Below, piece after piece: positions 258 through 60,463 of a DNA stretch of 64,000 bases (position 1 is the stretch's first letter; the number at the start of each line of letters is the position of its first letter). This stretch comes from a virus (lineage: Duplodnaviria > Heunggongvirae > Uroviricota > Caudoviricetes). The DNA is taken from IMG/VR virus record IMGVR_UViG_3300021405_000008, one strand, 5' to 3'. The notes under the pieces were generated by a model. That model did not search any database. It was not told the DNA's origin and was given only the letters and a program-made list of their open reading frames with translations. The position numbers and the translations under genes were made by a program.

Positions 258-724
258 CGATATACATCGACGTTACTCTGCGGGGATCAATACCGGCTGG
301 TATCGTTCCCGGCATAATACACAGATACAAGGTGCATCTTGAGGGTGTACTCGGAGACATGAGCGTTAACCTGATTCGAGCTTGCCTGCCGACGCAGTAC
401 ATGTATCTTGGGAATAATGGCGGTGATCCCAGACATAATCCGATTCCGCCGAATGCTGGCGCTCTAGTAGCGTCTATTCACACCAGGCGCGACACGCAAG
501 ATTCAGAGCTTGTTGTTGGAGATGACCTGATATATGGCCCATGGATTGAGGGTGTGGCAGTTGGCAATACATTCTTTTACCCGGGGCGCGTCAAGCGTGG
601 CATGGGCGGCCGGTTCCCGGGATACCACACCTTCCGGAAAATGACTCAGATTGTTGATTCAGCAACACCGGATATCGCATATACAGAGATACAGCCTTAC
701 ATACGTGAAATCAATGACTACTGA
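254..724 (+). CDS. hypothetical virion structural protein
   Basis: 156-aa ORF at head of co-directional structural gene block; no recognisable motif. Confidence 0.45.
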   Translation: MTIYIDVTLRGSIPAGIVPGIIHRYKVHLEGVLGDMSVNLIRACLPTQYMYLGNNGGDPRHNPIPPNAGALVASIHTRRDTQDSELVVGDDLIYGPWIEGVAVGNTFFYPGRVKRGMGGRFPGYHTFRKMTQIVDSATPDIAYTEIQPYIREINDY

Positions 725-736
725 GAAGAGGATACA

Positions 737-1096
737 GTGACCGAGCGGAATCTGTTTAGTTACAATGGCAAGATCATGGATGAGAGGATCATCGAGGGCG
801 AGGTAATTTCCGCAGCGACTTACCCGATGTGCCTGTCTTGCGTTTCTGAATATGTGCTTGCCAGGAACAAGTGGATAGAGAGTGGTCAGCCCGATGGGCA
901 AGAGCCATCATACTCAGATTCCGTTCGACCTGCCATAACGAACGCTGCTGCCTGGCAGCAGCAGGTAGTAGGTGGCCAGATGATAATGGCTTGTGTTGCA
1001 CTACCAACATGCATGCAGCACCTCGGGGTTCGTGAGAAGACGGCTATGGAGCGTGCTGCTGGAAGCGGCCTCATGGTTCCCGGTAATCTATCCTGA
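737..1096 (+). CDS. hypothetical protein
   Basis: 119-aa ORF, tight spacing in structural block. Confidence 0.4.
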   Translation: MTERNLFSYNGKIMDERIIEGEVISAATYPMCLSCVSEYVLARNKWIESGQPDGQEPSYSDSVRPAITNAAAWQQQVVGGQMIMACVALPTCMQHLGVREKTAMERAAGSGLMVPGNLS

Positions 1097-1111
1097 TAGG
1101 AGCATTATGTA

Positions 1112-1585
1112 ATGGCCGTTGTTACCTCGCACGTTTACCCGTATGCACAGAGCCTGATAAATGCGGGCTCCATCAACCTAACATCTGCCACCGCTGGTGC
1201 ATTCAAAATGGGCCTCTGCACGTCTGCGGCGGCCACCTGGGGTGCTACACAGTGGGCATACCAGTTTGTGTCATCGATTACCGGTGCATACACGGAAGTG
1301 AGCACGGGTGGCTATGCAAGAGTCAGCCTTGCGTCACTTGCAGTTGGAACTGGGACCACCGCCCAGTATGAAAAGTGGACTTGCACTAGCCCAATCAGCT
1401 TCGGCTCGACGATTACCCTCGCGGCTGCCAGCGGGTTCATATATACCACATTGGTTGGATCGGCTGATGCTTCCTACCCTGTGGTCGCAATCATCGACTT
1501 CGGGCAGACGGTAACATCTACCGCCGGTAACTGGACGTACACGATCGACCCAACTTATGGCCTAGCGTCTTGGGAATCGATTTAG
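1112..1585 (+). CDS. hypothetical structural protein (Thr/Gly/Ala-rich)
   Basis: 157 aa; N-terminus SLINAGSINLTSATAGA shared with next gene. Confidence 0.5.
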   Translation: MAVVTSHVYPYAQSLINAGSINLTSATAGAFKMGLCTSAAATWGATQWAYQFVSSITGAYTEVSTGGYARVSLASLAVGTGTTAQYEKWTCTSPISFGSTITLAAASGFIYTTLVGSADASYPVVAIIDFGQTVTSTAGNWTYTIDPTYGLASWESI

Positions 1586-1586
1586 C

Positions 1587-2204
1587 ATGGCCAACCAGAG
1601 CTGGGTCTCTCTGATCAATGCCGGCAGCTCGCGGGCAACCGGGGCCGGCACTGCTCTCAACACCGCTGCTACCGCTACGATATCTCCCTGTCAGGCTGCG
1701 GCTCTAACATCCGATGTGGCATCGGTTAACCCAGATGGTCAGCCGCTCGGATGGTATCCCGGACTTGTTATCCGCTGTATGGCACGCGGATACATGACCA
1801 CAACGGGCACAAGCACAACAGCAACCTGGCTCCTACGTTGCAACAAGGGCAACAACAACACATATACAACGTTCGCCACCACTGTTGGCCTCACTACCGG
1901 CACGGGTTCTGTAACTGGTCTGCAGTGGCATATGGATGCTACTTTGCGATGCACAGCAGTCGGCAGCGGAACCTCGGGTAGCGTTTCGACGCAGGCATGG
2001 CTTGAAATTTCCTCTTCTGTACCGGCTAACCCGGTCGCGCTTGGAAGCGCAGGGAACACGGTTTTGCCCATGCCAAACATCACCGGCGAAACTGCGCTAG
2101 GCATAGACACAACGCAGGTTACGGGGATTGGCTTGGCTGCTACTCTGGCCGGGGCAAATGCTACCATTCAGTGTACAGAGTGGATTGTCGAAGCTCTCGA
2201 CTAA
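1587..2204 (+). CDS. hypothetical structural protein, N-terminal paralog of previous gene
   Basis: 205 aa; SLINAGSSRATGAGTALNTAATA N-terminus; Thr/Gly-rich; 1-nt spacing to previous stop. Confidence 0.5.
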   Translation: MANQSWVSLINAGSSRATGAGTALNTAATATISPCQAAALTSDVASVNPDGQPLGWYPGLVIRCMARGYMTTTGTSTTATWLLRCNKGNNNTYTTFATTVGLTTGTGSVTGLQWHMDATLRCTAVGSGTSGSVSTQAWLEISSSVPANPVALGSAGNTVLPMPNITGETALGIDTTQVTGIGLAATLAGANATIQCTEWIVEALD

Positions 2205-21690: not shown

Positions 21691-22085
21691 ATCCATAAGA
21701 CACTTGCTCCCATCTCCCGGGCTATTGCATGTATGCGTTTGGCTGACCAGCATGCACGGTGAAGCGGATTCGTTATTGCGATGTCTACCTTGCCACTCGC
21801 GGCATGGAGGAGTCGCAGCCACTCTACGTCTACCCAAACCATTTGCGAGTGTTCTAGGCTGCAACCGGTCGGACCTTCTAGAGACATACCGAAGCAGCCA
21901 ACGCCGACAAGTTTGTTTGAGTATACTCCCATCATAATATCGCAGTCAGGGTGATTGCTGAGGGCTGGCATAGAGCGTTCCGGTACGTATGGCTCGTGAC
22001 GTTCATAATTGGATATCACTAGTGCTGGATTATGGCTTGTGCATATCAACTCGTATATCCGACTCATTTGAAAGTAGCACCTCAT
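21579..22085 (-). CDS. hypothetical protein (3' extent uncertain, overlaps 21466-21864 in another frame)
   Basis: 168-aa ORF; N-terminal two thirds protein-like. Confidence 0.3.
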   Translation of the reverse strand: MRCYFQMSRIYELICTSHNPALVISNYERHEPYVPERSMPALSNHPDCDIMMGVYSNKLVGVGCFGMSLEGPTGCSLEHSQMVWVDVEWLRLLHAASGKVDIAITNPLHRACWSAKRIHAIAREMGASVLWISINHILEMHGLGNFARAAETLCSAGPITTAMNMNRS

Positions 22086-22371
22086 CCTGGATTATCATGA
22101 TCCTTTTGACAAGCCTAGACACTCGCTTATTTCTGTGATTTGTATTGTCCACCAGTCTTTTCTCGTATGCCTTTATGGCTGCACCCTCTTCCCTTTCAAA
22201 GTCAGTGATGATCCATTCTCCAAACCTGGAGCTTCGAGTTTCGACTTCATATATTACCATTTCACGCGGCGGCCTATTCATATCATATAATCCCATCTTC
22301 TCCACCTGATTACGATTGTAGGTATTATGCATACATAGTGGTACTTCCTGCCACGGTAATATCCGATCCAC
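22030..22371 (-). CDS. hypothetical protein
   Basis: 113 aa ORF. Confidence 0.35.
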   Translation of the reverse strand: MDRILPWQEVPLCMHNTYNRNQVEKMGLYDMNRPPREMVIYEVETRSSRFGEWIITDFEREEGAAIKAYEKRLVDNTNHRNKRVSRLVKRIMIIQDEVLLSNESDIRVDMHKP

Positions 22372-22395
22372 CAGTCATTGAAGTCAAAGTAAACT

Positions 22396-24726
22396 TTAAT
22401 CATCCGGGTCTACTACCCATATCTGTTCGGCTAGAATCGGGGTGCCGAATCCAGCAATACGGTTGCCGGAGCAAACTACCACATCATGGTCGACATTAAT
22501 CGAGTCAACGAACCTGCGAAGTTTCGGAAACACGAATCGGTTAATCCTGATGTATATTTCCTCATCGCTATTATCATAACAGCGGAGCGAGCAGTACTTG
22601 AGAAGGTCGGGCCGATACATACTAGCTAGGATATCCTCCATCTCCTCGCCAGACCTTGACCTCTGGTTCTCAGCCGCATCCTGATAGGCGCGCTCGCGAA
22701 CGATACCGGCGTATACTATGTGCGGCCCTTTCGTGAACTTGTGCTTTTTGCCGCTTCCCCTATCATCATCCATTCTGATCGCGGCTAGCATTGCCCCGTC
22801 GTGTGTTAGGCGCGGTACGCGCGCCTGGCTCTTGATCCAGGAATTGACCCTGCCTAGTCGTCGCTCGGTTAGCTTCAGCTCAAATGGGTCATCTGATGTT
22901 GCAAATGCCTGGATCTTCTCTACTGTCTTCGGGCCAATTCCGTGGATGCGCTCCATATCAGACCAATGTTTGAATGGACCATTGTCCTTCACGTCCTGCT
23001 CGATGTTCACTGAGACGATAGGGCCGATGCCCGGTATCTCGCGCCATCCTGCAATTAGTTCGCCCGTTCCATCGGCCTTGAGCCATGGAGTCCATGATCT
23101 ACGGCTGTACTTAAGTCTTGGCGGGCTGATTCGGATATCGTGTTGCATCGCATCCCGCATTAGGCGGAACCGGGCTTCCTTGTCGTCGGTCTTCGCAAGG
23201 TGCGAGGCATAGAATTCCAGCGGGTGGTGCGCTTTGAGCCACGCGCACCACAGGGCTAGTATTGCATAGCTCACGGAGTGTGCATAGACAAAGGCGTAGG
23301 TTCCGCTGGTGACTAGTCTCTTCCATATTCTGTCTGCTGTCTCTGGGCTAATACCATGGAGCCTCGCGGCCCCCTCCATGAATCGTTCCTTGTTGACGTC
23401 GAATGCCGCTTCACCCATCTTCTTCGAGATGATGCGACGGATCTCGACGGCATGTGTCCAGTCGAAGTCCCCGACATCCCGTACAGTTTGCAGGATCTGC
23501 TCCTGATAGATAATCTGACCCTTGGTGTGCTTTGTGATATTTGTTACTACGTCGTGGTATCGTTCTGGCTTTCGTCGTCCGTGTTTGACGTCAACATATT
23601 CAGCAGTTGTTCCAGAAAAGAGCGGACCTGGGCGCGAGAGCGCGTTGATATCAATGACCTCTCCAAAGTTATCAGGACTGACATCTCTATTGATGAGCCG
23701 GGTTGCTCTTCCCTCATACTGAAAGAGACCAACCACATCTCCCTGCTTGAAGACTGCGAGAGCTGATGGATCATCATCCGGGATGGCATAGAGATCCTCC
23801 AAGGTAAGCCCGATCATCTCAAGGCATTTCGCAATGACGCCCATGGTGCTTAGCCCGAGTAGGTCCATCTTCAGCATGCCGGCCGAGTCGACGTCATACT
23901 TATCGATGCTGAGGATGGAGCGGCCATCGCGGTCGTAGATCGCGCAGATATCGGTAATCGGGGTCGGGGTAACGATCAGACCGGCGGCATGTACGCTCAT
24001 CCCGCGCATGTTGCCTTCGAGACGGACCGCATTCCATAGATCAGGGTAGGTATCGAATACCTCTTTGGCAGCCGGGAAGAGTTCCACGGTGTCCACAAGA
24101 CTCGCGTCAAATCGCGAGTCGCCGCCTGATCGTTCAATAACTAGATTGCTAACTACTTCCTTGGCGTAAGACGGAACATTATAGACACGAGCCACGTCAG
24201 CCAGGCTATTCTTGCCACGATAGCGAACAAAGTTAGCGACAGTTCCCACGCAGTCAGCACCGTAACGCCGAGACATATAGTCACGCACCAAATACCGGTG
24301 CTCGTCTGAAATGTCCAGGTCAATATCCGGCGGGTCAGATCGCGTGACATCAATGAACCTTTCGAACAGTAGATTGGGGTACCGGATCGGATCAACTTCG
24401 GTAATCCTCAGCATCCAGGCCACATTACTCGCGGCTACCGAGCCGCGCCCCGGTCCCATAGGTATGCCATGTGGAGCTTCTGGCCCTCGGTAGTCCTTGG
24501 CCCAGCGTACCATGTCGCTCGTAGCAAGGAAGAAGTCTGCAAAGTCTTTCCCGAGAATTAGGCCAGATTCATACTTTGTTCGCTCACCGTACCAGTTCCT
24601 TTCGGCTACTGGTCGCTTGCCAAGCTGCCGGTAATTCCAGCCGAATCGGAGCCACTGCCAATATAGATCTTCTGATGTCATTTTACGGCCGCCTTGTTCT
24701 TTTTTGTGACCCAGCAAGTTTGGCAC
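22396..24726 (-). CDS. dnaE: DNA polymerase III alpha (DnaE-type) catalytic core, C-terminal fragment of split gene
   Basis: 776 aa; GPGRGSVAASN…, PDIDLDISDEHR palm motifs, fingers/HhH region (GIGPKTVEKI). Confidence 0.85.
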   Translation of the reverse strand: MPNLLGHKKEQGGRKMTSEDLYWQWLRFGWNYRQLGKRPVAERNWYGERTKYESGLILGKDFADFFLATSDMVRWAKDYRGPEAPHGIPMGPGRGSVAASNVAWMLRITEVDPIRYPNLLFERFIDVTRSDPPDIDLDISDEHRYLVRDYMSRRYGADCVGTVANFVRYRGKNSLADVARVYNVPSYAKEVVSNLVIERSGGDSRFDASLVDTVELFPAAKEVFDTYPDLWNAVRLEGNMRGMSVHAAGLIVTPTPITDICAIYDRDGRSILSIDKYDVDSAGMLKMDLLGLSTMGVIAKCLEMIGLTLEDLYAIPDDDPSALAVFKQGDVVGLFQYEGRATRLINRDVSPDNFGEVIDINALSRPGPLFSGTTAEYVDVKHGRRKPERYHDVVTNITKHTKGQIIYQEQILQTVRDVGDFDWTHAVEIRRIISKKMGEAAFDVNKERFMEGAARLHGISPETADRIWKRLVTSGTYAFVYAHSVSYAILALWCAWLKAHHPLEFYASHLAKTDDKEARFRLMRDAMQHDIRISPPRLKYSRRSWTPWLKADGTGELIAGWREIPGIGPIVSVNIEQDVKDNGPFKHWSDMERIHGIGPKTVEKIQAFATSDDPFELKLTERRLGRVNSWIKSQARVPRLTHDGAMLAAIRMDDDRGSGKKHKFTKGPHIVYAGIVRERAYQDAAENQRSRSGEEMEDILASMYRPDLLKYCSLRCYDNSDEEIYIRINRFVFPKLRRFVDSINVDHDVVVCSGNRIAGFGTPILAEQIWVVDPDD

Positions 24727-25097
24727 AATCCGGTCTTGCCGGTGCCCGTTATGAAATTATCACAATCACTGCATTTGGCGGAAATTCTATTTATTGCATA
24801 CAGCTCTGATATTCGACGTTTGTTCCATTTATCGGGTGCAAGTTTAATTATTGTCGGGCAAGGCCAGTAATCTACGGTGACGTGATTATGTATGCCTCGC
24901 ATTATTCTACGGTATGCTTCGGTGGCTTCTGTATCAGTTTTTATTCCATCCCTTTCCCATCTCTGTACTGTTCCTCTTGTGCATCCTATGATCATCGCGA
25001 TCCGGTACAATCTTATCCTGCAGAATGTTCGCTCTAGTCTGCGACGTTCATTCAGATCCTCTGATGTTAGTTCCTCATCAAAGTCATTGTTGCTCAT
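24678..25097 (-). CDS. small HTH / CxxC zinc-finger protein (paralog A) inside dnaE-splitting cassette
   Basis: 139 aa; ERTFCRIRLYRIAMIIGCTRGTVQRWERDG HTH; IHNHVTVDYWPCP; CSDC…CQTC. Confidence 0.5.
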   Translation of the reverse strand: MSNNDFDEELTSEDLNERRRLERTFCRIRLYRIAMIIGCTRGTVQRWERDGIKTDTEATEAYRRIMRGIHNHVTVDYWPCPTIIKLAPDKWNKRRISELYAINRISAKCSDCDNFITGTGKTGLCQTCWVTKKNKAAVK

Positions 25098-25410
25098 ACC
25101 ATCTCCGAATCGTACGCATATTCATTAGTCTGTACTTGGTCCATTTCTCGGGTGCGAGCTTAACTAGCGTAGGGCAAGGCCAGTAATCGAGTGAAGCATG
25201 ATTGTGTATAGCATGCGCTATCCTTTGGTATGATATCCTGTCTGATGTAATTGGATCGACACCGGTCTTCTCCCAGGCATATATAGACTGCCTGTGGCAC
25301 CCTATCGTTTGCGCTATCTGATGCATTTTTATGCCGCAAAATATTCGCTCTAGCCTAGCTCGCTCTCCGTCATATTTTCTTCTTGTTATCTCTAGGTATA
25401 CATACCTCAC
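25084..25410 (-). CDS. small HTH protein (paralog B), tandem duplicate of 24678-25097
   Basis: 108 aa; ERIFCGIKMHQIAQTIGCHRQSIYAWEKTG…AIHNHASLDYWPCPTLVKLAPEKW colinear with paralog A. Confidence 0.5.
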   Translation of the reverse strand: MRYVYLEITRRKYDGERARLERIFCGIKMHQIAQTIGCHRQSIYAWEKTGVDPITSDRISYQRIAHAIHNHASLDYWPCPTLVKLAPEKWTKYRLMNMRTIRRWYEQQ

Positions 25411-25751
25411 TGATCCTCCGGGATCTTATTGATCCTGTATGAAAGTCTTTGCAGCATAATTCTCTTTGTGGATTCGACATCCTTTGTGAAATGCTGTATC
25501 CCCACGATTCCGGTTATTGCAACATCGGCTAGCTCGTTGAATACATCCTCCATTTCACTGCTGAATCCCTTCCTTGGATTCTGTCCCGTGTAACCCAGGA
25601 ATGCCTCGAATGCTTCTCCTGCTTCCTCCCCTGCCTTTGCTACTCTTGCTAGATCTTGTGCTAGTGGCTGTACCTTGTATTCATTACTGGTGTTATCATC
25701 CAACCAGTCATCAATTCGTTCGATTGCAGAAAGTACGTCATTCATGTCCAT
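25407..25751 (-). CDS. MazG-like nucleotide pyrophosphohydrolase
   Basis: 114 aa; KAGEEAGEAFEAF and NELADVAITGI acidic helix motifs typical of MazG/all-alpha NTP-PPase. Confidence 0.55.
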   Translation of the reverse strand: MDMNDVLSAIERIDDWLDDNTSNEYKVQPLAQDLARVAKAGEEAGEAFEAFLGYTGQNPRKGFSSEMEDVFNELADVAITGIVGIQHFTKDVESTKRIMLQRLSYRINKIPEDQ

Positions 25752-26734
25752 GGCTGCATATCCCTTTCCGTTGCATTGTAGCGGAGACGTTCCGCTTTAG
25801 GCAAAGTCACGTTACATAGGCTGCCAACGTAGGCGCTTGCCTCGATCGCGGCCCACGCGGAGTCCCGCGATATCCCGGTGCGCTTCAGGCGATTAGCTAG
25901 TGCCTTATCTGATGATGGCAGCGTCAGCGGCACCTTGTAGTTCCATTCGCGCATGGCGTCGTCCACGCTAGCCTTACCGCGACCTACGGCATGTAGTACG
26001 GCTTGCATTTCCGCATCGGCCATCTCAGGGTAATGCACATCATGCGTAACTACTAGTGGTACATCAAATTCTCTGCTCAGCCGTTCATATGCCTTGTTCA
26101 TGGCGCAGCTACGTGGTAGTTCATAGAATGGCTGGATCTCTAGGAAGTACCTGTCTCCGAAGAGTGCTCTGAAGTTTTCAATGACTACTCCTGCTGTACC
26201 ATAGTCTGGCCTATCGATGTGCTCTGGAGTTCCCTTACCTCCAAGCAGTGCACAGGCAAGTAGACTCCCGCTGCATCCCGAAAGAACAATGATTCCTTCG
26301 GAGTTATCCGCAAGGTTGTCACCAGAGACCGTTGGATGGTAATGGTGATCGAGGTAGGACTGGGTGACGATTCTGTTGAGGCTTCGGTATCCAGCGGCAT
26401 TTTCGGCGAGGATTGTGAGGTGGTGCTTGTATTGTCCTCTCGCTGGCCGAAGGATCGTATTCCCCTGTTCATTCAGGATGAACCGTGCCTCGTCATTTTC
26501 TTCAAGAACAGATCCACAGTATGCCTCCATACCGAAGATGGGCTTTATGCCCGCTTTGATGGCTGCTTTCTCGAACTGGAAGTGAGAGCTAACATTCCCG
26601 TGCTCGGTCGCAGCTACCGCCGAGTATCCCAGCTCCACTGCACGCTGTACGTGGGAGGCTGGACTCCCATATCCATCCATAAATGAGAATGTAGTGTGAT
26701 GGTGTAGGTTAACGAAATTTACCGGCGTTTTCAT
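25742..26734 (-). CDS. dnaE: DNA polymerase III alpha PHP (N-terminal) domain, N-terminal fragment of split dnaE
   Basis: 330 aa; FVNLHHHTTFSFMDG…ATEHGNV…GMEAY classic PHP motifs; ends before palm domain. Confidence 0.85.
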   Translation of the reverse strand: MKTPVNFVNLHHHTTFSFMDGYGSPASHVQRAVELGYSAVAATEHGNVSSHFQFEKAAIKAGIKPIFGMEAYCGSVLEENDEARFILNEQGNTILRPARGQYKHHLTILAENAAGYRSLNRIVTQSYLDHHYHPTVSGDNLADNSEGIIVLSGCSGSLLACALLGGKGTPEHIDRPDYGTAGVVIENFRALFGDRYFLEIQPFYELPRSCAMNKAYERLSREFDVPLVVTHDVHYPEMADAEMQAVLHAVGRGKASVDDAMREWNYKVPLTLPSSDKALANRLKRTGISRDSAWAAIEASAYVGSLCNVTLPKAERLRYNATERDMQPWT

Positions 26735-26780
26735 TCAAGCATCATCTCATTTAATTGCAGTTCTCCTTCAGTCAATTCGA

Positions 26781-27017
26781 CTACTTACCCTGGGTGACGT
26801 TTCGTATGTAACGGTCTGCACATGATTTTGCTGCCGCTTGTGTTTTGTGGTTGTGTTCACAAGTCCAAACTACCTTGCCTCTTTCATTTTTAACTATTCC
26901 GTGCATTGGCTCTGCAGTCTTGCTGCTCTTTGCTTGTGCTCCTCTCCTTTTCTTCTTGCTAGACAGAGATTTCGAGTATCGAAGTGGGCCAATACCAAAT
27001 GACAGTCTGAATCCCAT
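26781..27017 (-). CDS. small basic protein
   Basis: 78 aa Lys-rich ORF. Confidence 0.3.
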   Translation of the reverse strand: MGFRLSFGIGPLRYSKSLSSKKKRRGAQAKSSKTAEPMHGIVKNERGKVVWTCEHNHKTQAAAKSCADRYIRNVTQGK

Positions 27018-27063
27018 TTCATGTCCTTCTGTGATGGTGGCAGTTAATGAATTTCAAAGCGGG

Positions 27064-27501
27064 CTACTCCCTAATGCTTAGCATCTCTCCTCGACCACCG
27101 CAAGTCCTGCAGTCGTGAACATTGGCCTGTGGCGGGTTGAAGAATGGGCCTCTGCTATCCTGCCCTTGATCTAGGCCGAGATGTTTTGGAAGTGGTCTTC
27201 CGAGGAGCTGGGCGCCTCCCGTGCAGTCTGTACATTTCACCCTGATCTGCTTTCCATCATCATACCTTGCAACCACCAACCTTGTTTTAGATAGTTGCTT
27301 GGCGATAATCATGAGAGTGATAGGTAGCGCAGTGGTGCAGATAAGATACAGAACTAGGGTTGCCCGCCATGTGAAGTCCATTGGCACGAGTACTAGTGCT
27401 GATACAACTAGCACCCAGCTAACTATTACTCCGGACACTATGTTAAACATTATCCCTGTCCGTTGGTCCAGGCTCTCCCCATTCACCCCATCCATTGTCA
27501 T
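27064..27501 (-). CDS. membrane protein with C-terminal zinc-ribbon
   Basis: 145 aa; two TM helices; CTDCTGG…CRTCGG. Confidence 0.4.
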   Translation of the reverse strand: MTMDGVNGESLDQRTGIMFNIVSGVIVSWVLVVSALVLVPMDFTWRATLVLYLICTTALPITLMIIAKQLSKTRLVVARYDDGKQIRVKCTDCTGGAQLLGRPLPKHLGLDQGQDSRGPFFNPPQANVHDCRTCGGRGEMLSIRE

Positions 27502-29134: not shown

Positions 29135-29325
29135 TTCTTCTCCTCCGGCAAGTCAATGTAAGTGCGTTCGCCGCTCTTAACGCGGAGCGCATCGATAGCG
29201 TCCATTATGCGTTCTGGGGTTTCATCCCAGCGTTTCGACAGATCTCTTATTTTACTCTGCGGTTCTTTATTGTGGGCTTCATCGACCAGCTCCATGAGTT
29301 TCTCGAATGGACGACGCAGCTTCAC
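29131..29325 (-). CDS. hypothetical small protein
   Basis: 64 aa ORF. Confidence 0.3.
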   Translation of the reverse strand: MKLRRPFEKLMELVDEAHNKEPQSKIRDLSKRWDETPERIMDAIDALRVKSGERTYIDLPEEKK

Positions 29326-29951
29326 TACTTCCTCCGACTTTCAGCCTCGTGGATTAGGGCCATAAGTAGGCGGCCCTGACCGATAGCGTCGTCTACAGCG
29401 ACGTGGGGCCGTAGCCCAGATCTATCAACATTGTATTTCTTGTACAGATCACCCTCTGAAATCTTCTCATAGTATCCCGGTGTATTGAATAGCCCATTCG
29501 CGTAGCTTCGAATGTCCAGACATGCGAAGCCAAGAGGGTTTATGCCATAGAACTGATGTAGATAGTAGTTAACATGCCCGAAGTCGAAGGCGGCTGGCCA
29601 AGCTGCCGGAATTAGCTTTGCGTTGCACGTGCTCTGCATTTGGTCCAGAAGTAGACCGAATTCACCCATCACTTCATGCGGGGCTCTCTGATTTCGATTG
29701 ACCTCTAGCCATGCAGCGGGCTGAGTGTTCCACCATATCATGGTATCGTTATTTTGCATGCCATCCGGCAGAGGTTCAATTGTGCTATAGAATGTTTCGA
29801 TTTCTTTGCCATTTAGGTACATGGCCGCGCCTATTGCTAGCATGCTATTTAGACCCGGGCAAGGCCCATCGGTCTCGATGTCCAGAGATACGTAAAGCTC
29901 GGTCTTACTCATTGACATCATCGAACTGAATAGATAGCGTGGCCGGTTCAT
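29325..29951 (-). CDS. DnaQ-like 3'-5' exonuclease (DEDDh)
   Basis: 208 aa; Exo I LDIETDG, Exo II AFDFGHV, Exo III HVAVDDA. Confidence 0.75.
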   Translation of the reverse strand: MNRPRYLFSSMMSMSKTELYVSLDIETDGPCPGLNSMLAIGAAMYLNGKEIETFYSTIEPLPDGMQNNDTMIWWNTQPAAWLEVNRNQRAPHEVMGEFGLLLDQMQSTCNAKLIPAAWPAAFDFGHVNYYLHQFYGINPLGFACLDIRSYANGLFNTPGYYEKISEGDLYKKYNVDRSGLRPHVAVDDAIGQGRLLMALIHEAESRRK

Positions 29952-30198
29952 CTACCGACGGATCTGCTGGGTTGAATGACAAATCTACTGCCAATTCCCC
30001 GGTGTCCTCATCTCCGACTACTGCATCATCTGGTACATTATTCTGGCTAGCCCAATCCCTCAGATATCCCCAGGTGATCTGACTCATTGTCTGACTTACC
30101 TCTCCGAATGATTCTGACATTATCTCTTCTAGCGCTATGTCGCTCAGTTCAAATCCCGTGTCTGTCTGGCTTACATCCTCCTCGCCCCAGCTTGGCAT
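29905..30198 (-). CDS. small acidic protein
   Basis: 97 aa, Asp/Glu-rich. Confidence 0.35.
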   Translation of the reverse strand: MPSWGEEDVSQTDTGFELSDIALEEIMSESFGEVSQTMSQITWGYLRDWASQNNVPDDAVVGDEDTGELAVDLSFNPADPSVDEPATLSIQFDDVNE

Positions 30199-31394
30199 TA
30201 CTCACCCTTTACATTAATAATCTGGTGCAGGGTGTGCTCTATCTTGACTAGGTCTGCCGCATCTCGCATGACGACATCGACATCCTTGTAGGCGGCGGGG
30301 ATTTCATCGATGAACTTGTCTGAGTGCCTCCACTCGATACCCTGCATTGCCTCTTCTAGGTCCGCGAAGCTGAATGCACGCTCTGCTGCCTTCCGCCCAT
30401 ACTGACGGCCTGCGCCGTGCGGTGATGAGTTCAGGGATAGCGTGTTGCCGAGTCCCGAGACAACGTAGGATGCCGTCCCCATGGATCCAGGGATAAGCCC
30501 CATACGGCCCTCACTGGCGTCGATCGCGCCCTTCCGCGAAAGCCATACATGTCCCTCTATATCTGCCGATGGCCTGAAGCGCCGCAGTAGATCTTCGGTC
30601 ATCGGCTCGGTGTAATTGTGATGGCACTGGATGCGCTCAGATACGTACCAGTCGTCTATCTCCTGAGTTATGCACCCAAGGACACGGTCCATCATCTCTT
30701 CGCGGTTCATACGCGCGAACTCCTGCGCCCAAAAGAGGCAGCGCAGGTAGTCCCTGAACTCTGGCGTGCCTTCGACAAGATATGCGAGGTCGGAATCAGG
30801 TAGCGTCACCCAATTGTACTTGCAGTATGCTTGGGCAATTGCGATGGACTTCATTGCTAGCTTATTGCCGACGCCTCGGCTGCCGCTGTGCAGGAATGCC
30901 CATACCCGGTCTTCCTCATCTACTGAGACTTCGATGAAGTGGTTGCCCGAGCCGAGCGATCCAAGCTGCATATCCCAGTCGGCTATCTGAGTGGCGTCCT
31001 CGGCCCCATCCATCTTTGCCAGGATATTGACCCGGTGTTCGGTCCTCCGGTCCCATAGTTTCTGATTGTACTTACCTACTGACAGCGGTATGGCTCGCTC
31101 GATCCGCTCCCGGATTCGCCGCCTGAGATCAGGGTCTTCTAGCTGTTCCGCGTATAGGCTTGTGCGGTGCGCGATCATGCCGCAGCCGATATCGACTCCC
31201 ACAGCTGCCGGCATAATTGCGCCAATTGTCGGGATGACTGATCCCACCGTCGCGCCTTTGCCCCAGTGAGCATCAGGCATAATTGCAACATGCGGAAAGA
31301 TGAATGGCATAGAGGCAGTATTAAGCGCCTGCTGCTTCGCGCCATCTTCGAGGATTGATGCCCAGCTGAACAAGCGATTGTCTATCTTCTCCAT
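30198..31394 (-). CDS. rtcB: RtcB-family RNA ligase
   Basis: 398 aa; MPDAHWGKGATVGSV, GVDIGCGM, GSGNHFIE, HNY, SPHGAGR motifs. Confidence 0.85.
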   Translation of the reverse strand: MEKIDNRLFSWASILEDGAKQQALNTASMPFIFPHVAIMPDAHWGKGATVGSVIPTIGAIMPAAVGVDIGCGMIAHRTSLYAEQLEDPDLRRRIRERIERAIPLSVGKYNQKLWDRRTEHRVNILAKMDGAEDATQIADWDMQLGSLGSGNHFIEVSVDEEDRVWAFLHSGSRGVGNKLAMKSIAIAQAYCKYNWVTLPDSDLAYLVEGTPEFRDYLRCLFWAQEFARMNREEMMDRVLGCITQEIDDWYVSERIQCHHNYTEPMTEDLLRRFRPSADIEGHVWLSRKGAIDASEGRMGLIPGSMGTASYVVSGLGNTLSLNSSPHGAGRQYGRKAAERAFSFADLEEAMQGIEWRHSDKFIDEIPAAYKDVDVVMRDAADLVKIEHTLHQIINVKGE

Positions 31395-31477: not shown

Positions 31478-32521
31478 CTACTTGGCGGGGGTTGTGTTGA
31501 GTGCGAGTCCGCTCGTTGAACCAGGGAAGCAGCTAAACCCAGCCGGAAGGTTGTTCTCGCTCTTGACGTCCGTAAGGCACTGTGCGATGAGCTGGGCCAC
31601 AGTCGGGTCACCTAGCTTAGCGAATGCCTGCGAGTTCTCCTGGTTGACTAGGACGTTGGTCTTAGCGATGACGAGATTGGCAGCAGCTTGCTGGATTGCC
31701 TGTAGCTGCGCTTCCACTGGTGCCGGATATTGCATGTTCGGGAACAAGACGCTGATCACGTCGATCCGATTGCCGATGTCATGCTGCATCTGCGCAAGGA
31801 TCTGTGAACTGAACCCGGTGAACTGGCTCTGGGCTCCGGCCGTCGTGTTTACGGTCGTGGTATCGGTAATAGGCGAGTAGTCACCCACCACGTTATTCAC
31901 GACCTGCTCCAGTTCCCGGATGACGACCGCATTCGTGATGGTTGACATCAGGCTACCCTGATTAGCGTAGTCTTCGAACAGTCCACCAGCGGCAGCAGGG
32001 AGGATCTTCCACTGAATGGTAACCTTGGCGCAGGCCTGGAAGTTTCCGCCGATTCGTACTGGCAGGGAGCCATCGCAGGATTCAGTACCATTCTGCATCA
32101 CGCCGTCGGTACCACCCGGTTCGAAGGTCGTGGTCTGAACAGTTTCGTCTTCGTCCACGACGCCGAGCCATGGTTGCCATGTCCAGTGTGTTCCCGGACT
32201 CAGTGTACTACCTGACACGGAATTGAATGCGATCGGGATTCCCACAGTCTTCGGCGGCACGCTCTTGATTCCGCCGACCGCGTAGAAGGCGATGCCAAGC
32301 ACGACGCATATAGCTCCAGCACCATACCTAGCTCCACGAGACCAGATCGAGTCTGAACGTGGGGATAGATCCGGACCCAGAGCACCCCAGGCGATAAATA
32401 CGATCGCAATGACCCAGAAGATGATTGCGATCACGAATAGGAAACTACTCACCCTTCCGTCGTTCCAGGCTGTCAAGCTCATCATCGGTAGTAGCCTGGT
32501 TGATCCTATCGATGAGGGCAT
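31478..32521 (-). CDS. membrane protein, SPFH/band-7-like (tentative)
   Basis: 347 aa; N-terminal TM helix, Gln/Ala-rich coiled C-terminal region. Confidence 0.4.
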   Translation of the reverse strand: MPSSIGSTRLLPMMSLTAWNDGRVSSFLFVIAIIFWVIAIVFIAWGALGPDLSPRSDSIWSRGARYGAGAICVVLGIAFYAVGGIKSVPPKTVGIPIAFNSVSGSTLSPGTHWTWQPWLGVVDEDETVQTTTFEPGGTDGVMQNGTESCDGSLPVRIGGNFQACAKVTIQWKILPAAAGGLFEDYANQGSLMSTITNAVVIRELEQVVNNVVGDYSPITDTTTVNTTAGAQSQFTGFSSQILAQMQHDIGNRIDVISVLFPNMQYPAPVEAQLQAIQQAAANLVIAKTNVLVNQENSQAFAKLGDPTVAQLIAQCLTDVKSENNLPAGFSCFPGSTSGLALNTTPAK

Positions 32522-45695: not shown

Positions 45696-46727
45696 CTAGC
45701 TCCAGCAGTGCACGTAGTCGATGACCATCTTGGCTGATGGGAGCAGAGACGGGTTCGGGTTAACGCTGTTCGTACCGGTGCCGTTGGTCGCGATGTTGAG
45801 CAGACAGTACGAGCCACCGTTGTTGTCGAACGGCCACGGCGTAAGATTGGACGGCGTGGCGGATGCATACAGGGTATTGTCAATGAACAGTTGTACCGAA
45901 CCCTTTGCCCAGTCCAGGCGATAGGTATGGAACCCGCCGTCCATCTGGTTACTAGCGCGGCCACCCTGGCTAGCGGTAGCGATGCCGTTCCAGATTGTGC
46001 CCTCGGTGAAACCGGTACCGTAGTTCTCCATGACGTCGATCTCGCCGCAGCCCGGCCAGGAGCCTTCACCGAGCAGCCAGAACGCAGGCCAGCATCCCGG
46101 CACATTCGGTACCGCAATGGATGCCTCCCAGTGTCCGAACTGCTGGTGGAAGTTGCTCTTAATCCTCGCGCTGTTGAACCCGCCGCCGTCGGCCGGGGTG
46201 ACAGCAATAACGAGGTGCCCGTTGCCGTCGAGATAAGAGTTGGCAGTTGACTTGACGTAGTTCTCGGTCTCATTGTTTCCGCCGATAGAGGCCCCAGAAC
46301 CGACATCCCAAAGCCAGTTGGTCGCGCTGGGCAGTGTGCCCGCAGGGCCGTTGAACTCATCGGCAAAGGTGTACGTCGGAGGAGGTGTAACCACCACGGG
46401 CGGCGGGGTAGTCGCCGGGGGCTGGTGTGCGAAAGCTGGCTGCCCCCAACTACAAACCGGGGCCGTAGTTGCCGTGTGCTCGCCTACTGCGTTTCGAGTC
46501 CTCATTGATATCTCCGCATCTGATCCGGCCACTATTAGACCGGCAGCCGATATGCCGATTGTTGCCAGGAACCTCCTGCGGTCCCTGATTCTTACCTGCT
46601 GCGCCTCAGAAACTTCGGCCGAGGTAGGCCCCCGATCGCTGAACAGAATGCGATCGCGGTATTTATGTAGAGGAAGATGTATGCGCCATTTATTACGTCG
46701 TGGGCTGTCAATTGGATTCACCTCCAT
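45696..46727 (-). CDS. secreted glycoside hydrolase family 16 (beta-glucanase/laminarinase-like) with Tat signal
   Basis: 343 aa; DRRRFLATIGISAAGLIVAGS twin-arginine signal; GH16 catalytic GEIDVMENYG. Confidence 0.75.
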   Translation of the reverse strand: MEVNPIDSPRRNKWRIHLPLHKYRDRILFSDRGPTSAEVSEAQQVRIRDRRRFLATIGISAAGLIVAGSDAEISMRTRNAVGEHTATTAPVCSWGQPAFAHQPPATTPPPVVVTPPPTYTFADEFNGPAGTLPSATNWLWDVGSGASIGGNNETENYVKSTANSYLDGNGHLVIAVTPADGGGFNSARIKSNFHQQFGHWEASIAVPNVPGCWPAFWLLGEGSWPGCGEIDVMENYGTGFTEGTIWNGIATASQGGRASNQMDGGFHTYRLDWAKGSVQLFIDNTLYASATPSNLTPWPFDNNGGSYCLLNIATNGTGTNSVNPNPSLLPSAKMVIDYVHCWS

Positions 46728-47812
46728 GCCCAGGACTGTGACAACAAGTAGCCATTAATGGCAGACTTGAAGTCGGACAGTGTATCGAGTGCGTGAATTT
46801 CATAGCGGAACCGCTCGTTGCGAATGCCATTCCGCGTCGGGTCTTGGACGAATGCCGCGTGGAACGTGGTGGCGGCGTAGGAAACTAGCCATCCGCTTGG
46901 CCCGTCGTAACTCTCGTATGCTGTGCAGGTCTTCGGACAGGTATAGCCCAGGTCGGAGTATGGCACGACCCAGGCATCCCCGTTGAAACGACTGCCCAGC
47001 TCCGAGGTCAGCTCGGCAATGCCATCTGACATCTCCGACTTGACCCGGATAGTGTATGCTGCGTCGCTCTCGCCAGGTAGCTTACAGGCATTGAAGGCGA
47101 AGCAGTTCTTGTCATAGTCTTGCTGGTAATGCCCGTCCTGCCCAGCCTCGATACTAAACGAGTAGACGCTTGGACTTAGGGCCTTGAGCTGTGGCCATGT
47201 CAGATCCCATCCAATGTCGCCCTTTGGGCACTCCGGCTGGACATTTACCCCGCTGATCTTTGGGCCGCATTTGCCATTCGCGCCATCCGCGAACCCGGTC
47301 ACGAGGAATGCGACGGCTGTGAAACGGTAGTGGTAGAGGATCGGCTGTGCTCCCTCTAGGAAGTCACCGATGCCATTGTCTACCGTGATGAAGAATGGCT
47401 TCGTGGGTAGCTTGTACTGCTTGTTTGCTAGCCAAGCGAGGTACTGACTCATTGTCACTGTGTGGTAGCCCTGATCGTACATCCAGGCCATCTCGGCCGT
47501 GAACTGGGATGTACTCACGCTCTCATAGTCATGTGATTGGCAGATCGGAGCAGATGCCGCACAGTCATTATCCATCTCGTGATATACTAGGACCGGGACC
47601 TGCGATGCGGTGGCTACCGGAACCTTATGGCCGGCTACCTGCTTGACGCTCGCCAGGGTTGATGCCGGGGCGGTTGCCGATGATGATTCTGTATTGCTAG
47701 ATCCATACGTGAGCACCACGGTGTGTATCACCAGCATAGAGCCAGCGATTATGACTACTAGAATGGTGGAGAAGATGCCTATCATCATGTAACGGCGGCG
47801 ACGGAAGCTCAT
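46718..47812 (-). CDS. membrane-anchored polysaccharide deacetylase (CE4/NodB-like)
   Basis: Start at MSFRRRRYMM (ATGA coupling to upstream stop); TM; PVLVYHEM…FITVDNG NodB-homology-like motifs. Confidence 0.6.
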   Translation of the reverse strand: MSFRRRRYMMIGIFSTILVVIIAGSMLVIHTVVLTYGSSNTESSSATAPASTLASVKQVAGHKVPVATASQVPVLVYHEMDNDCAASAPICQSHDYESVSTSQFTAEMAWMYDQGYHTVTMSQYLAWLANKQYKLPTKPFFITVDNGIGDFLEGAQPILYHYRFTAVAFLVTGFADGANGKCGPKISGVNVQPECPKGDIGWDLTWPQLKALSPSVYSFSIEAGQDGHYQQDYDKNCFAFNACKLPGESDAAYTIRVKSEMSDGIAELTSELGSRFNGDAWVVPYSDLGYTCPKTCTAYESYDGPSGWLVSYAATTFHAAFVQDPTRNGIRNERFRYEIHALDTLSDFKSAINGYLLSQSWAWR

Positions 47813-49050
47813 GAGTCGATACCCACCTTCATCGCTTCGGCCTGCATGCCCTCGGCTTTGTACTGCGGGGCCCATAGATCGCCCATAGATGCACTTAGCA
47901 CCTTGTACCAGCTCACTACGCCCCAGGCGATAGCAATCAGGTTATAGATGATCATGTGCACGAGGAGGACCGCTAGCAGGGTATCTTTCCAGTCGCGCGC
48001 CCAGTCGTGTCCTCGGATGCGTCGGACATGGATGAATTCCACTAGCATGAGGAATCCCGTCAGTAGCTGCCACTTCCAGTTGAAGCGCCCGGGGTCGACG
48101 ATTGCCTCGGTACCGTTCAGGGCAGTCCATATCATCCAGAAGCTGATGTTCATGAACAGGAATCCGCGCTGTAGCCACTCGCGGTAGTTCAGGCGATTGC
48201 ACCCGAATCGAAGCAAGTCACCGCATGTGCCGGCTTCCCACTTGATACGCTGATACCAGAGTGACTTCCATGTCTTCATGCTACCGGTGTAGCAGAAGAC
48301 CGTTTCCGACATCCAGCATTTCCAGCCCTTCTGCCGGAGTCGGTATGTGAGGTGGTAGTCCTCGACTACGCTTTCGTAAGTCCAGGGGCCTTCCTGGTTC
48401 GGACGGGCGGCCACTGCTTGTAGAGCGATATTCCGGAACGCGCATCCAGTACCAGATATCACCCGGCACCAGCCACGGCTTAGGGTCTGTGTTGCGCTCT
48501 TTGCGAACTCGTACCTTTGCAGCCTAGGCAGGTAGCCCTTGCCCGTCATGATTGGCTGACTCGATGACCCTCCAAGTTGGGGATCATTAGCGAACTCCGC
48601 TTCCCAGTCGGCTACCGCGTGCGGAGGCATCGTAGTATCACCATCAGCGCAGATGATGATGTCGGCGGTCTGGCAGTACTTGTTCCATGCCATGTTTAGT
48701 GCGCCGGACTTGCGGTGGGTGTTGCCTTCCGTTTCGATCACCCGGACACCGTACAGATTGGCGATTACTACAGTCCAGTCCGTAGAGTTATCCGAGATAA
48801 CGATAATGTCATCCAGTCTTCTAGTCTGATCTAGAAGAGACTGAATTGTATTGCCGATGTCCTCTTGCTCATTGTGGGCCGGGATGAGAGCTACAATCCT
48901 CGGCGATAGCTTGTGTGGCACGGTATTTGCCAGCATAGATTCTAGATCGCTGCGGGTGGTAATGTCGCAGGCTGAAACTGCTCTGGCTGGATTGGCATGG
49001 TTGGTAGTCCTTGCCCTCATCCAGGAAAACTCATCGTTGCTTGGAGTCAC
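47809..49050 (-). CDS. processive family-2 glycosyltransferase (PgaC/NodC/cellulose-synthase-like)
   Basis: 413 aa; IPAHNEQEDI, ICADGDT (D,D,D), QRIKW (Q-x-x-R-W) motifs; multiple C-terminal TM helices. Confidence 0.75.
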   Translation of the reverse strand: MTPSNDEFSWMRARTTNHANPARAVSACDITTRSDLESMLANTVPHKLSPRIVALIPAHNEQEDIGNTIQSLLDQTRRLDDIIVISDNSTDWTVVIANLYGVRVIETEGNTHRKSGALNMAWNKYCQTADIIICADGDTTMPPHAVADWEAEFANDPQLGGSSSQPIMTGKGYLPRLQRYEFAKSATQTLSRGWCRVISGTGCAFRNIALQAVAARPNQEGPWTYESVVEDYHLTYRLRQKGWKCWMSETVFCYTGSMKTWKSLWYQRIKWEAGTCGDLLRFGCNRLNYREWLQRGFLFMNISFWMIWTALNGTEAIVDPGRFNWKWQLLTGFLMLVEFIHVRRIRGHDWARDWKDTLLAVLLVHMIIYNLIAIAWGVVSWYKVLSASMGDLWAPQYKAEGMQAEAMKVGIDS

Positions 49051-58797: not shown

Positions 58798-59099
58798 GCC
58801 TTCCTAATTGCACTCGGGTGAATTTCTGGATCGGGTTCCCCGGTGAACAACCACTCTGTTGTCTCGCCGGACAGCTGAACATTCTCGCCAGTCACGCTCC
58901 GAGTTTCATGGTTGCCCGAGTTTTCCGATTCCATTTTTCTCCATTTTGAAATTCTAGCGGGAGGCAGTTTTGAACTATATCCGACTAACCCTATCGGGAA
59001 TAACGGATACATAATGCCTCCGCTTATGAATGTAACCCAGCATATTAGCGCTACCCCTGTGGCCAGAAGTATCGTGAGTGTTACCAATCTAATGTTCAT
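58773..59099 (-). CDS. small membrane protein
   Basis: 108 aa; N-terminal TM helices. Confidence 0.35.
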   Translation of the reverse strand: MNIRLVTLTILLATGVALICWVTFISGGIMYPLFPIGLVGYSSKLPPARISKWRKMESENSGNHETRSVTGENVQLSGETTEWLFTGEPDPEIHPSAIRKAWDRLWRR

Positions 59100-60463
59100 A
59101 ATTCTCCCGTATATTCCCCCGCATAAGTACGGATAGCATCCGTGATCCTTTGATGGATCGGGTTTAGCTCGAATGGCTGCCTATTCAGGATATCCACGGT
59201 GCGCTTCAAAACTCGCTGCGGAACTTCCACTAGTGTATCGTCAAGAAGTGACCAGCTCAGCTTATTGAGGGCTGATCGGATATGCCAATCATCGCCGTTT
59301 CGGCAAATGGCTTCTAGTTCGCGGAATAGCCCAAGACTCTCGTACGGATATCCTAGTTCCATATCGAATACATCTACTGCGGGGATCGGCGAGTCGATCA
59401 TGGCCGCCGTCTCGAATGCGTTGAATAGCGGCGATACTTCCCCTGCAGTCTCATTGTCATAAAGCCCCGGAAACGACACCTCCTCGTAACCAGGGTCATA
59501 GCCGCTTATGTAGATAGGAGCGCAGGATAGATTTGATTCGAGAGTGCCAATTGCAACGTCTAGAAGGCTGACTGGCCATCCCAGATCATTAATGGCGTGA
59601 ATTAGGAACTGATCAAGTTTGGCACCGAGAGACGCCGCGAGGAGGAGCTGGGATGACTCAAGAGCTGACTGCACGTAGAATACGATATCCGAGCTATGCA
59701 GCCTAACTATGCCATCCTCGGTATTGGCCCATTTCTTGAGCTTTGTATAGAAGATTGAATTGTCGATAACGTGGGTGAACCTGGCGGCGGAAACCAGCAT
59801 TTCAGCGCAGGAACTGCTTGCGTAGCACTCCGCAGCACGCTTCGATGCAGAGTAGATTTCGGGCGAATAGGGGCGAAGCGCTTTGCCAGTAGAGGCACAA
59901 ACCACCTGCGGAATGCCACTCATGGCCGCTGAATCCAGAACGTTCCTAGTGCCAAACAGATTAGTTGTTACCGTGCGATGCACCTCGATTTCGGCAAGAG
60001 ACGGGCTGTGCTGCGCGGCTACATGGAATATGATATCCGGACGGACTTCTGCTATAATCTCGTCTAGACGTCCACGGTCCCTAATGTCACATATCATGTA
60101 TTCCGCGCTACGCTGCGCCGTCCAGTTGACTGTGATACCCCGGCTAATGCTAACTAGCCGATCTGGCCGATACTTAACCAGCTGCGACATGAGCATCGAC
60201 CCGACGCAGCCGGTACCACCGGTAACAAGGATAACCGCACCGCCTAGCTTGTTCTGGAGCAATTGCTCCGGCAATGTAATGCTTCTATTCTGTATCTCAA
60301 GAAAACGCTTATATTCTGCGTGTGCGTCCGGCTTGGCGGCTATTAGCTGTTTCGTGAGAAATTTCAGATCATTGATTTCGCCGATACCAAGTTCAGCCTT
60401 GTGCGGTGGCACAGCCCGCTTCATTTCTGAAATTACTTCTGATGCAGTCATCACAAATATCAT
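59096..60463 (-). CDS. NAD-dependent nucleotide-sugar epimerase/dehydratase (CapD/PseB/WbpM-like polysaccharide biosynthesis protein)
   Basis: 455 aa; VILVTGGTGCVGSML (TGxxGxxG), catalytic YSASK. Confidence 0.7.
   Translation of the reverse strand: MIFVMTASEVISEMKRAVPPHKAELGIGEINDLKFLTKQLIAAKPDAHAEYKRFLEIQNRSITLPEQLLQNKLGGAVILVTGGTGCVGSMLMSQLVKYRPDRLVSISRGITVNWTAQRSAEYMICDIRDRGRLDEIIAEVRPDIIFHVAAQHSPSLAEIEVHRTVTTNLFGTRNVLDSAAMSGIPQVVCASTGKALRPYSPEIYSASKRAAECYASSSCAEMLVSAARFTHVIDNSIFYTKLKKWANTEDGIVRLHSSDIVFYVQSALESSQLLLAASLGAKLDQFLIHAINDLGWPVSLLDVAIGTLESNLSCAPIYISGYDPGYEEVSFPGLYDNETAGEVSPLFNAFETAAMIDSPIPAVDVFDMELGYPYESLGLFRELEAICRNGDDWHIRSALNKLSWSLLDDTLVEVPQRVLKRTVDILNRQPFELNPIHQRITDAIRTYAGEYTGEL

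Follow-up and report, generated by a model that had tools for sequence, protein, structure and literature searches.

The subject of this work is the C-family DNA polymerase DnaE of a tailed phage (Duplodnaviria; Heunggongvirae; Uroviricota; Caudoviricetes) represented by the IMG/VR virus record IMGVR_UViG_3300021405_000008, in which the PHP domain and the polymerase core are encoded by two separate genes. The DNA analysed, referred to below as the window, is a stretch of 64,000 nucleotides (64 kb) out of a contig of at least 95 kb. The polymerase locus lies on the minus strand at positions 22,396 to 26,734 and contains five open reading frames (ORFs), three of which occupy the gap between the two polymerase pieces. 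The two-piece polymerase and its five minus-strand ORFs had been described in an initial annotation of the sequence, and both were confirmed by the ORF list, by Pfam and by the full-length phage DnaE profile phrog_405. The features of the locus are as follows (aa, amino acids; HTH, helix-turn-helix).

25742-26734, minus strand: PHP-only ORF (N piece), 330 aa, Pfam PHP domain
25745-25762, minus strand: C-terminal tail of the PHP subunit, D-M-Q-P-W-T, an instance of the DLxPW-x-stop signature, whose Pro-Trp codons CCATGG hold the ATG of the next gene
25407-25751, minus strand: MazG-like ORF (gap cargo), 114 aa
25084-25410, minus strand: HTH1 ORF (gap cargo), 108 aa
24678-25097, minus strand: HTH2 ORF (gap cargo), 139 aa
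22396-24726, minus strand: DnaE core ORF (C piece) in its longest form, from GTG, 776 aa; 22396-24681 from ATG, 761 aa

The PHP piece and the core piece are in different reading frames, 1 kb apart on the same strand, and stop-to-start overlaps of 10, 4, 14 and 4 nucleotides (nt) join all five genes. The core had been placed at 22396-24726, an assignment that holds for its content and needs revision at its start. The ATG at 24681 overlaps the stop codon of the upstream gene as ATGA, and in two close relatives, designated L006 and L008, the core begins at the equivalent Met (MTSEELFWQW and MTSEELYWQW, respectively, compared to MTSEDLYWQW in the window). The ATG at 24681 is preferred because of this overlap and the shared start in the close homologues, so that the core is probably 761 aa long and the GTG at 24726 is not used.

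The N piece contains a single recognizable domain, PHP (PF02811, E=7.5e-33, 114.6 bits against a cut-off of 26.4), and its residues 4-319 align to residues 4-293 of Taq Pol III alpha, the structure of which has been solved. The metal ligand positions were assigned by matching to the Taq motifs, using the nine-ligand definition of PMC5636811, and all nine ligands are present (H11, H13, D20, H45, E70, H105, C154, D232, and H234). The nine-ligand set separates the exonuclease-active PHP domains (Mycobacterium tuberculosis DnaE1 and Taq) from the inactive PHP domain of E. coli (PMC5636811). Across 14 aligned sequences the nine positions are invariant, save an alignment gap at the first three in gp82 of Mycobacterium phage Leopard. 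Judged by its ligands, the N piece is a probable 3'-5' proofreading exonuclease, and its nuclease chemistry is expected to resemble that of the nine-ligand trinuclear site of M. tuberculosis DnaE1. In Leopard gp82 (L004:4747-5628, 293 aa) it is the N-terminal HxH...D ligands that are missing from the alignment, and the annotated start of this gene is probably too far downstream.

The C piece carries the Pfam domains DNA_pol3_alpha (PF07733, 9.4e-58, 196.3 bits), the finger domain (PF17657, 2.9e-35, 121.5 bits), and HHH_3 (4.4e-9), and matches phrog_11165, a family of core-only proteins, from end to end (1.9e-242). The three catalytic Asp residues of the palm, two in PDIDLD and one in KMDLLG, are kept and invariant. 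Residues 10-576 align to residues 314-885 of the M. tuberculosis DnaE1 structure, and alignment to both the Taq and the M. tuberculosis structures stops at about residue 576 of the 761. Beyond the helix-hairpin-helix (HhH) domain no Pfam match was obtained in the core, and the OB-fold/tau-binding region of bacterial DnaE1 was not found in it. The last 185 or so aa (22396-22950, minus strand) are phage-specific, having neither a Pfam domain nor a counterpart in the Taq, E. coli or M. tuberculosis alpha subunits, and this C-terminus stands in place of the bacterial OB/tau-binding region.

When aligned to phrog_405, the N piece covers profile positions 41-325 and the C piece positions 332-899, that is, the two are adjacent and do not overlap. 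Alignment of the junction to the intact phage DnaEs of Delton, Yara, P3.1, and Predator indicated that the N piece extends about 10 residues beyond the last PHP position that can be aligned and that the C piece opens where the palm alignment does. The linker in which the break falls, between PHP and palm, is short and poorly conserved; the earlier placement of the break after the PHP domain, with the core running from the palm onward, thus agrees with the alignments to intact DnaEs and to the Taq and M. tuberculosis structures. The ratio of nonsynonymous to synonymous substitution rates (dN/dS), computed against L008 (a relative 85-88% identical), was approximately 0.086 for the N piece, 0.058 for the core, 0.135 for the MazG-like gene, and 0.155 for HTH1, the range over all genes of the locus tested being 0.06-0.16.

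With the PHP piece as query, 5.8 billion proteins yielded 512 matches at E<=1e-20, of which the best 120 were inspected. These 120 are 59-100% identical to the query and without exception stand-alone proteins, 294-368 aa in length. An identical break, down to the residue, is shared by at least 120 distinct protein clusters. The genomic contexts examined for relatives (L005, L006, L008-L013, L018, and L020) are all split as well, with varied gap content, and the split is also found in cultured phages of actinobacteria. The genes between the two polymerase pieces are listed below.

L009: one 64-aa gene
L010: one 94-aa gene
L013: genes of 50 and 100 aa
L012: genes of 77 and 113 aa
L011: genes of 44, 55, and 102 aa
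L020: one 81-aa HTH gene (L020:4001-4246)
L018: one 113-aa HTH gene (L018:434-775), the downstream gene being the DnaE core
L006: a 50-aa gene, MazG, HTH, and a 151-aa gene
L008: MazG, HTH, a 153-aa gene, and a 116-aa gene
L005: an HNH-like/NUMOD3 gene (157 aa), MazG, and a 165-aa gene
Mycobacterium phage Leopard: 92-aa gp83, between gp82 and gp84
Microbacterium phage Ajin: 63-aa gp62, between gp61 and gp63
Gordonia phage LittleFella: empty gap, gp69 and gp70 abutting with a 4-nt overlap

No gene is universal to the gap in an all-against-all BLAST of 24 gap proteins, which yielded only four small families. A candidate second MazG family, the 94-aa gap protein of L010, was rejected (hhalign probability 2.5%). 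GenBank labels both halves of the cultured split phages as DnaE-like polymerase. Intact DnaE was met only at about 45% identity (cluster D Delton, Predator, Streptomyces phage Yara, and Nocardia phage P3.1), and no uninterrupted dnaE was found among close relatives, the best 120 of the 512 PHP homologues all being stand-alone. In a neighbor-joining (NJ) tree the window falls together with L008-L013 in a monophyletic group of split forms only; at deeper nodes split and intact DnaEs are intermixed, e.g., Ajin (split) pairs with Yara (intact) as its sister at 100% bootstrap support. The split is old, being conserved in a large clade of uncultured phages and present in cultured actinobacteriophages too. 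It had been proposed that the three-gene cassette fractured the gene, and that a close uninterrupted allele might serve to date the insertion. The cassette did not cause the split, since the identical break occurs in at least 120 clusters with unrelated or no cargo, LittleFella having none; and because no close relative has an intact dnaE, nothing is at hand to date a recent insertion.

In this large clade the position of the PHP stop codon is itself fixed at the level of single residues. Among the best stand-alone PHP homologues, 118 of the 120 inspected (of 512) carry the tail LPKAERLRYP....DLxPW, and the stop codon lies exactly one residue past the PW in 87 and no more than three residues past it in 104. 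The PHP piece of the window ends in ...ERDMQPWT-stop, which fits a D-[LMWFY]-x-P-W tail, and D-[LW]-x-P-W is found near the end of the PHP piece in every split form, the distant Leopard, Ajin, and LittleFella among them. The DLxPW motif is missing from the four aligned intact DnaEs. The Pro-Trp codons, CC(A/G)TGG, contain the ATG or GTG start codon of the first gap gene in the window, L006, and L010-L013, with a 10-nt overlap; L020 also has a 10-nt overlap, by coordinates. The first gap genes that use this embedded start are mutually unrelated, yet all begin M-[DEG]-[LIMV], and the Pro-Trp junction looks like a fixed site of cargo-gene exchange. The PW is kept without an embedded start in L008, L009, Leopard, Ajin, and LittleFella; a role of the tail at the protein level is plausible because PW is conserved where no gene starts there. 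We infer that the DLxPW tail may contribute to the assembly of the two subunits by helping to dock the PHP subunit on the core.

The 114-aa cassette protein is, by its motif and profile match, a MazG-like all-alpha nucleoside triphosphate (NTP) pyrophosphohydrolase. Its motif E42-E43-x-x-E46...E73-x-x-D76 (EExxE...ExxD) is invariant in four gap homologues, and its family profile matches the nucleotide pyrophosphohydrolase PDB 5IE9 (E=4.5e-4); the match to Pfam PRA-PH (14.6 bits) is under the cut-off of 21.3, and no NCBIfam or PHROG match was obtained. Orthologues are located in the DnaE gap of L005, L006, and L008. HTH1 and HTH2 are tandem paralogues (48% identity over 89 aa, E=2e-33). The HTH proteins of the window match only HTH_23 in Pfam, below threshold (E=3.5e-4 for HTH1); the HTH1 homologues P0128, P0149, and P0158 carry PF01381, and the family is named XRE regulators by JGI. 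A confident AlphaFold model of HTH1 built from a nine-sequence alignment has six helices and no strands (mean predicted local distance difference test score, pLDDT, 82.7; predicted template modeling score, pTM, 0.71). The top 50 PDB structures returned for this model by Foldseek are all HTH proteins of the Cro/C1/HipB/SinR/C-protein/Aca type, none of them a nuclease and none reaching E<=0.001. The model and these matches identify HTH1, and with it HTH2, as predicted XRE-type helix-turn-helix proteins and not nucleases.

HTH2 carries in addition a C-terminal CxxC-x13-CxxC element. Its AlphaFold model, from a three-sequence alignment, is unusable (pLDDT 49.6). A search of 5.8 billion proteins with HTH2 returned only itself and P0002, so that it is found in the gap of this phage only, and its slot in L006 and L008 is filled by a cupin-like gene of 151-153 aa (phrog_4786). 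A C-terminal extension, HNHAxxDYxPCPT, is conserved in the HTH1 family; its literal "HNH" was considered as an HNH nuclease motif and rejected. The HTH family is very small (about nine members in the 5.8 billion proteins). It lies in the DnaE gap in five of seven contexts (the window, L006, L008, L018, and L020), and in the more distant phages L018 and L020 it is the only gap gene; the remaining two homologues, L017:4001-4321 and L019:4001-4321, stand in unrelated contexts. This recurrence in the gap may reflect shared ancestry or a functional tie. Two other assignments of the HTH proteins were rejected. An NCBIfam match of HTH1 and HTH2 to the Streptomyces telomere protein Tap involves the N-terminal HTH only and scores 25 bits against a cut-off of 600, i.e., generic similarity, and a weak Terminase_5 match suggesting a small terminase was dismissed on the neighboring genes, the downstream gene in L018 being the DnaE core. 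None of the three cassette proteins belongs to a nuclease family in Pfam, PHROGs, NCBIfam or PADLOC, and PADLOC gave HTH-level matches only (RmrA and mad1) with no defense-system assignment. The MazG-like and HTH identities given to the small genes in the initial annotation thus stand, whereas the HNH/zinc-finger endonuclease activity also suggested for them does not, there being no nuclease family and an all-helical model of HTH1. Against 50,697 phage records, neither tblastn of the MazG-like protein and HTH1 nor megablast of the region 22000-27100 gave a match.

Several accounts of this arrangement have to be weighed. One is the recent fracture of an intact dnaE by a free-standing homing-endonuclease cassette, as with mobE in nrdA of Aeromonas phage Aeh1, for which there are precedents (PMC2988022). 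Mobile nucleases do visit the locus in relatives, as seen from a NUMOD3 gene in L005, a weak match to an HNH-endonuclease family in the 116-aa gap protein of L008, and an insert in the core gene of L006, and the gap is a hotspot of gene turnover. The L005 protein (157 aa; gene at 1629-2102, plus strand; core identity of L005 67%) is encoded by the first gene in the gap, the ORF of which, as listed, shares 88 nt with the end of the PHP gene. It contains NUMOD3 (1.7e-7, above threshold) together with an HNH-like Cys/His pattern, and weakly matches the homing endonucleases of phrog_314 (5.6e-6); it is likely, from these matches, to be a free-standing homing endonuclease. The L006 core gene is interrupted at TSGTYAF|VYAHS by an insert that starts with Cys (L006:2860-3672, plus strand) and inside which the contig ends; its matches to Intein_splicing (E=3.3e-4) and HNH_2 (E=4.7e-3) are both below threshold, and it is probably an HNH-containing intein, an insert that the window does not have. 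The GC content of the cassette genes (0.44-0.45) is also below that of the polymerase pieces (0.53), but equally low values are common to other small ORFs nearby, outside the gap. More seriously for a recent fracture, no nuclease domain or fold was detected in the three cassette proteins of the window, the break is identical in at least 120 clusters with unrelated cargo, the LittleFella halves abut without any cassette, and no intact allele exists among relatives closer than about 47% identity. We therefore regard a recent fracture as improbable. At most, the split may go back to an endonuclease in the distant past, or an endonuclease may have invaded a gene that was already split; the latter possibility has been raised for the T4-like gene 43 (PMC2988022).

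Alternatively, a split intein, a group I/II intron or translational bypass might join the two halves into one mature polypeptide. Cyanobacteria are known to have a split-intein DnaE, and the core gene of L006 contains a probable intein at another place. "Fractured genes" that combine split inteins with an endonuclease gene lying between the pieces have also been described (PMC2677866). In the window, however, there are at most 10 extra residues on either side of the junction, which leaves no space for an IntN (about 100 aa) or IntC (about 35 aa), and neither a terminal HN nor a +1 Cys/Ser/Thr is present at the junction (the N piece ends in ...QPWT and the C piece starts MTSEDLYWQW), so that the earlier remark that intein hallmarks are missing holds. 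No RNA family in Rfam, group I and II introns included, was found at E<=1 in 22000-27200, and the 1-kb interval is wholly taken up by three conserved, constrained ORFs. Rejoining of the halves is accordingly given very little credence. The same is true of the view that the split is decay or artefact, i.e., a pseudogenized polymerase or a sequencing or assembly error. What speaks for it is a frameshift in the IMG/VR relative L005, whose PHP gene (720-1716, plus strand) is broken into the ORFs 720-923 and 841-1716, perhaps by misassembly or perhaps by genuine decay. A frameshift had already been thought an unlikely explanation for the window, and rightly, as numerous independent assemblies show the same split, as do the finished genomes of cultured phages, and three full ORFs intervene; moreover, the catalytic residues are all intact, dN/dS is about 0.06-0.09 in both pieces, and tblastn with either piece detected no further DNA polymerase fragment in the window. 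Decay or artefact can hardly be credited on these grounds.

A different alternative gives the gap genes a part of their own, as dedicated partners of the replicase, with the HTH proteins serving in DNA tethering, origin binding or regulation and the MazG-like protein in sanitizing the deoxynucleoside triphosphate (dNTP) pool. The rare HTH family in five of seven contexts in the DnaE gap, twice as the sole gap gene, the MazG orthologues in the gap of four relatives with 67-90% core identity, and the purifying selection on the HTH and MazG genes, which have stop-to-start overlaps with their neighbors, are consistent with such partners. Many clade members lack both, however: L009-L013 carry unrelated small genes, the LittleFella gap is empty, two HTH homologues reside elsewhere, and common descent of the close relatives can account for the co-location. 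Dedicated partners are thus rather unlikely. A broader proposal is that the split is a functional design, in which a detachable PHP proofreader docks by its DLxPW tail, fidelity is tuned by subunit stoichiometry, and the gap genes (the HTH family and the MazG-like gene) are accessory replicase parts. Translational coupling usually gives less of the downstream product, and for this reason fidelity could be tunable by the stoichiometry of the subunits. We hold this design to be possible and, on balance, unlikely.

We propose instead, as the probable explanation, that a two-gene C-family DnaE replicase, made of a PHP subunit and a core, is a trait of this phage lineage and that the gap between the two genes acts as a cargo bay. 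Because both pieces are intact and constrained, a two-subunit enzyme is the natural reading. The five overlapping genes probably share one transcript and are probably coupled in translation. The PHP subunit, whose trinuclear-metal exonuclease site is complete, and the core, with palm, thumb, fingers, and HhH, would form a two-subunit replicase, assembling non-covalently through the normal interface of PHP with palm and thumb. The gap would be a cargo bay with turnover, holding in the present phage an enzyme of the nucleotide pool and a DNA-binding regulator in two copies. The roles of the cargo genes, like the exonuclease activity, are inferred by us.

Some points weigh against this proposal. 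A stand-alone PHP protein could act independently of the core, its binding and its exonuclease activity being predictions. The dN/dS values are approximate, with dS above 1 (saturated). The conservation of the PW tail is partly confounded with constraint at the nucleotide level, from the embedded start codon. Only the best 120 of the 512 homologues were inspected, and the NJ tree has only moderate support at several nodes, so that the split may have had a single origin or several.

The closest known systems are the split DnaEs of cultured actinophages, i.e., the Microbacterium EF/EC-type phages AnnaSerena, Krampus, and Ajin, the Mycobacterium Onyinyevirus phages Leopard and Onyinye, and the Gordonia Terapinvirus phage LittleFella. 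They share with the window the break in the PHP-palm linker, the gene order and strand, the D-[LW]-x-P-W tail, and a core of about 750-800 aa; they differ in being only about 45% identical and in having gaps with no or one small gene (63 or 92 aa). In E. coli the Pol III core (alpha and epsilon) likewise has polymerase and proofreader on separate polypeptides, as proposed for the window, but there the proofreader belongs to the DEDD nucleases and binds a PHP domain that is inactive, while in the window a PHP domain of the active type is itself detached. In M. tuberculosis DnaE1, which shares all nine ligands, the PHP domain is covalently part of the polymerase. In the DnaE of cyanobacteria the break lies far downstream in the polymerase. 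Cyanobacterial split-intein DnaE and the metagenomic "fractured genes" (Dassa et al. 2009, PMC2677866) resemble the window in having replication genes in two pieces, sometimes with an endonuclease between them, and differ in carrying split-intein halves for trans-splicing, whereas the window has no intein blocks. In the Aeromonas T4-like phages 25 and 44RR, the B-family polymerase gene 43 is split into 43A and 43B, whose two polypeptides co-purify and are active; the gap holds a seg endonuclease gene in one phage and an untranslated spacer in another. The window differs in polymerase family (C instead of B), in the position of the break relative to the domains, and in its cargo, which is a homing endonuclease in 43A/43B. 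The nrdA gene of Aeh1 with mobE, and the T4 topoisomerase genes 60/39 split by mobA, are similar to the window in that an essential enzyme is encoded in two ORFs with an intervening ORF, and their halves reassemble without splicing (PMC2988022). Both have an intervening HNH homing endonuclease and close intact relatives, neither of which is found for the window.

Two-gene DnaE has already been annotated in cultured phages, and the window alone is an ordinary further example. In the literature we found no dedicated or functional study of a split phage DnaE, only one sentence noting it (Jacobs-Sera 2020, PMC7302621). What is added by the present analysis is the clade-wide conservation of the split to the residue, the signature tail, the intact PHP sites of the proofreading type, and the turnover hotspot in the gap. 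The split DnaEs offer a natural system for the communication between PHP exonuclease and core without a covalent link, for docking by the tail, and for cargo swapping at a fixed junction; cultured members exist on the hosts Mycobacterium smegmatis, Microbacterium foliorum, and Gordonia terrae.

In the tailed-phage genome to which the window belongs, structural genes lie on the plus strand and a replication/nucleotide-metabolism arm on the minus strand, the latter syntenic with the actinophages already named. Upstream of the polymerase, this arm contains genes for an oxidoreductase, ThyX, RtcB, an Rv2179c-like exoribonuclease, and a methyltransferase. A promoter/terminator scan of the polymerase region found no terminator-like site on the minus strand and fewer promoter-like matches than expected from shuffled sequence, and was uninformative. 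The RtcB RNA ligase is full-length (30198-31394, minus strand, Pfam E=1.7e-107), with the Rv2179c-like 3'-5' exoribonuclease (29325-29951) downstream of it on the same strand, and the two may be an RNA-repair or anti-defense module. A protein with an SPFH/Band 7 domain (31478-32521, minus strand, E=1.3e-9), unusual beside replication genes, is encoded between ThyX and RtcB. Further away, within 45696-49050 and 59096-60463 (both minus strand), there are genes for a GH16 glycosyl hydrolase, a family-2 glycosyltransferase, and a polysaccharide-biosynthesis epimerase/dehydratase-like protein, which may be involved in glycan modification of the cell envelope or the virion.

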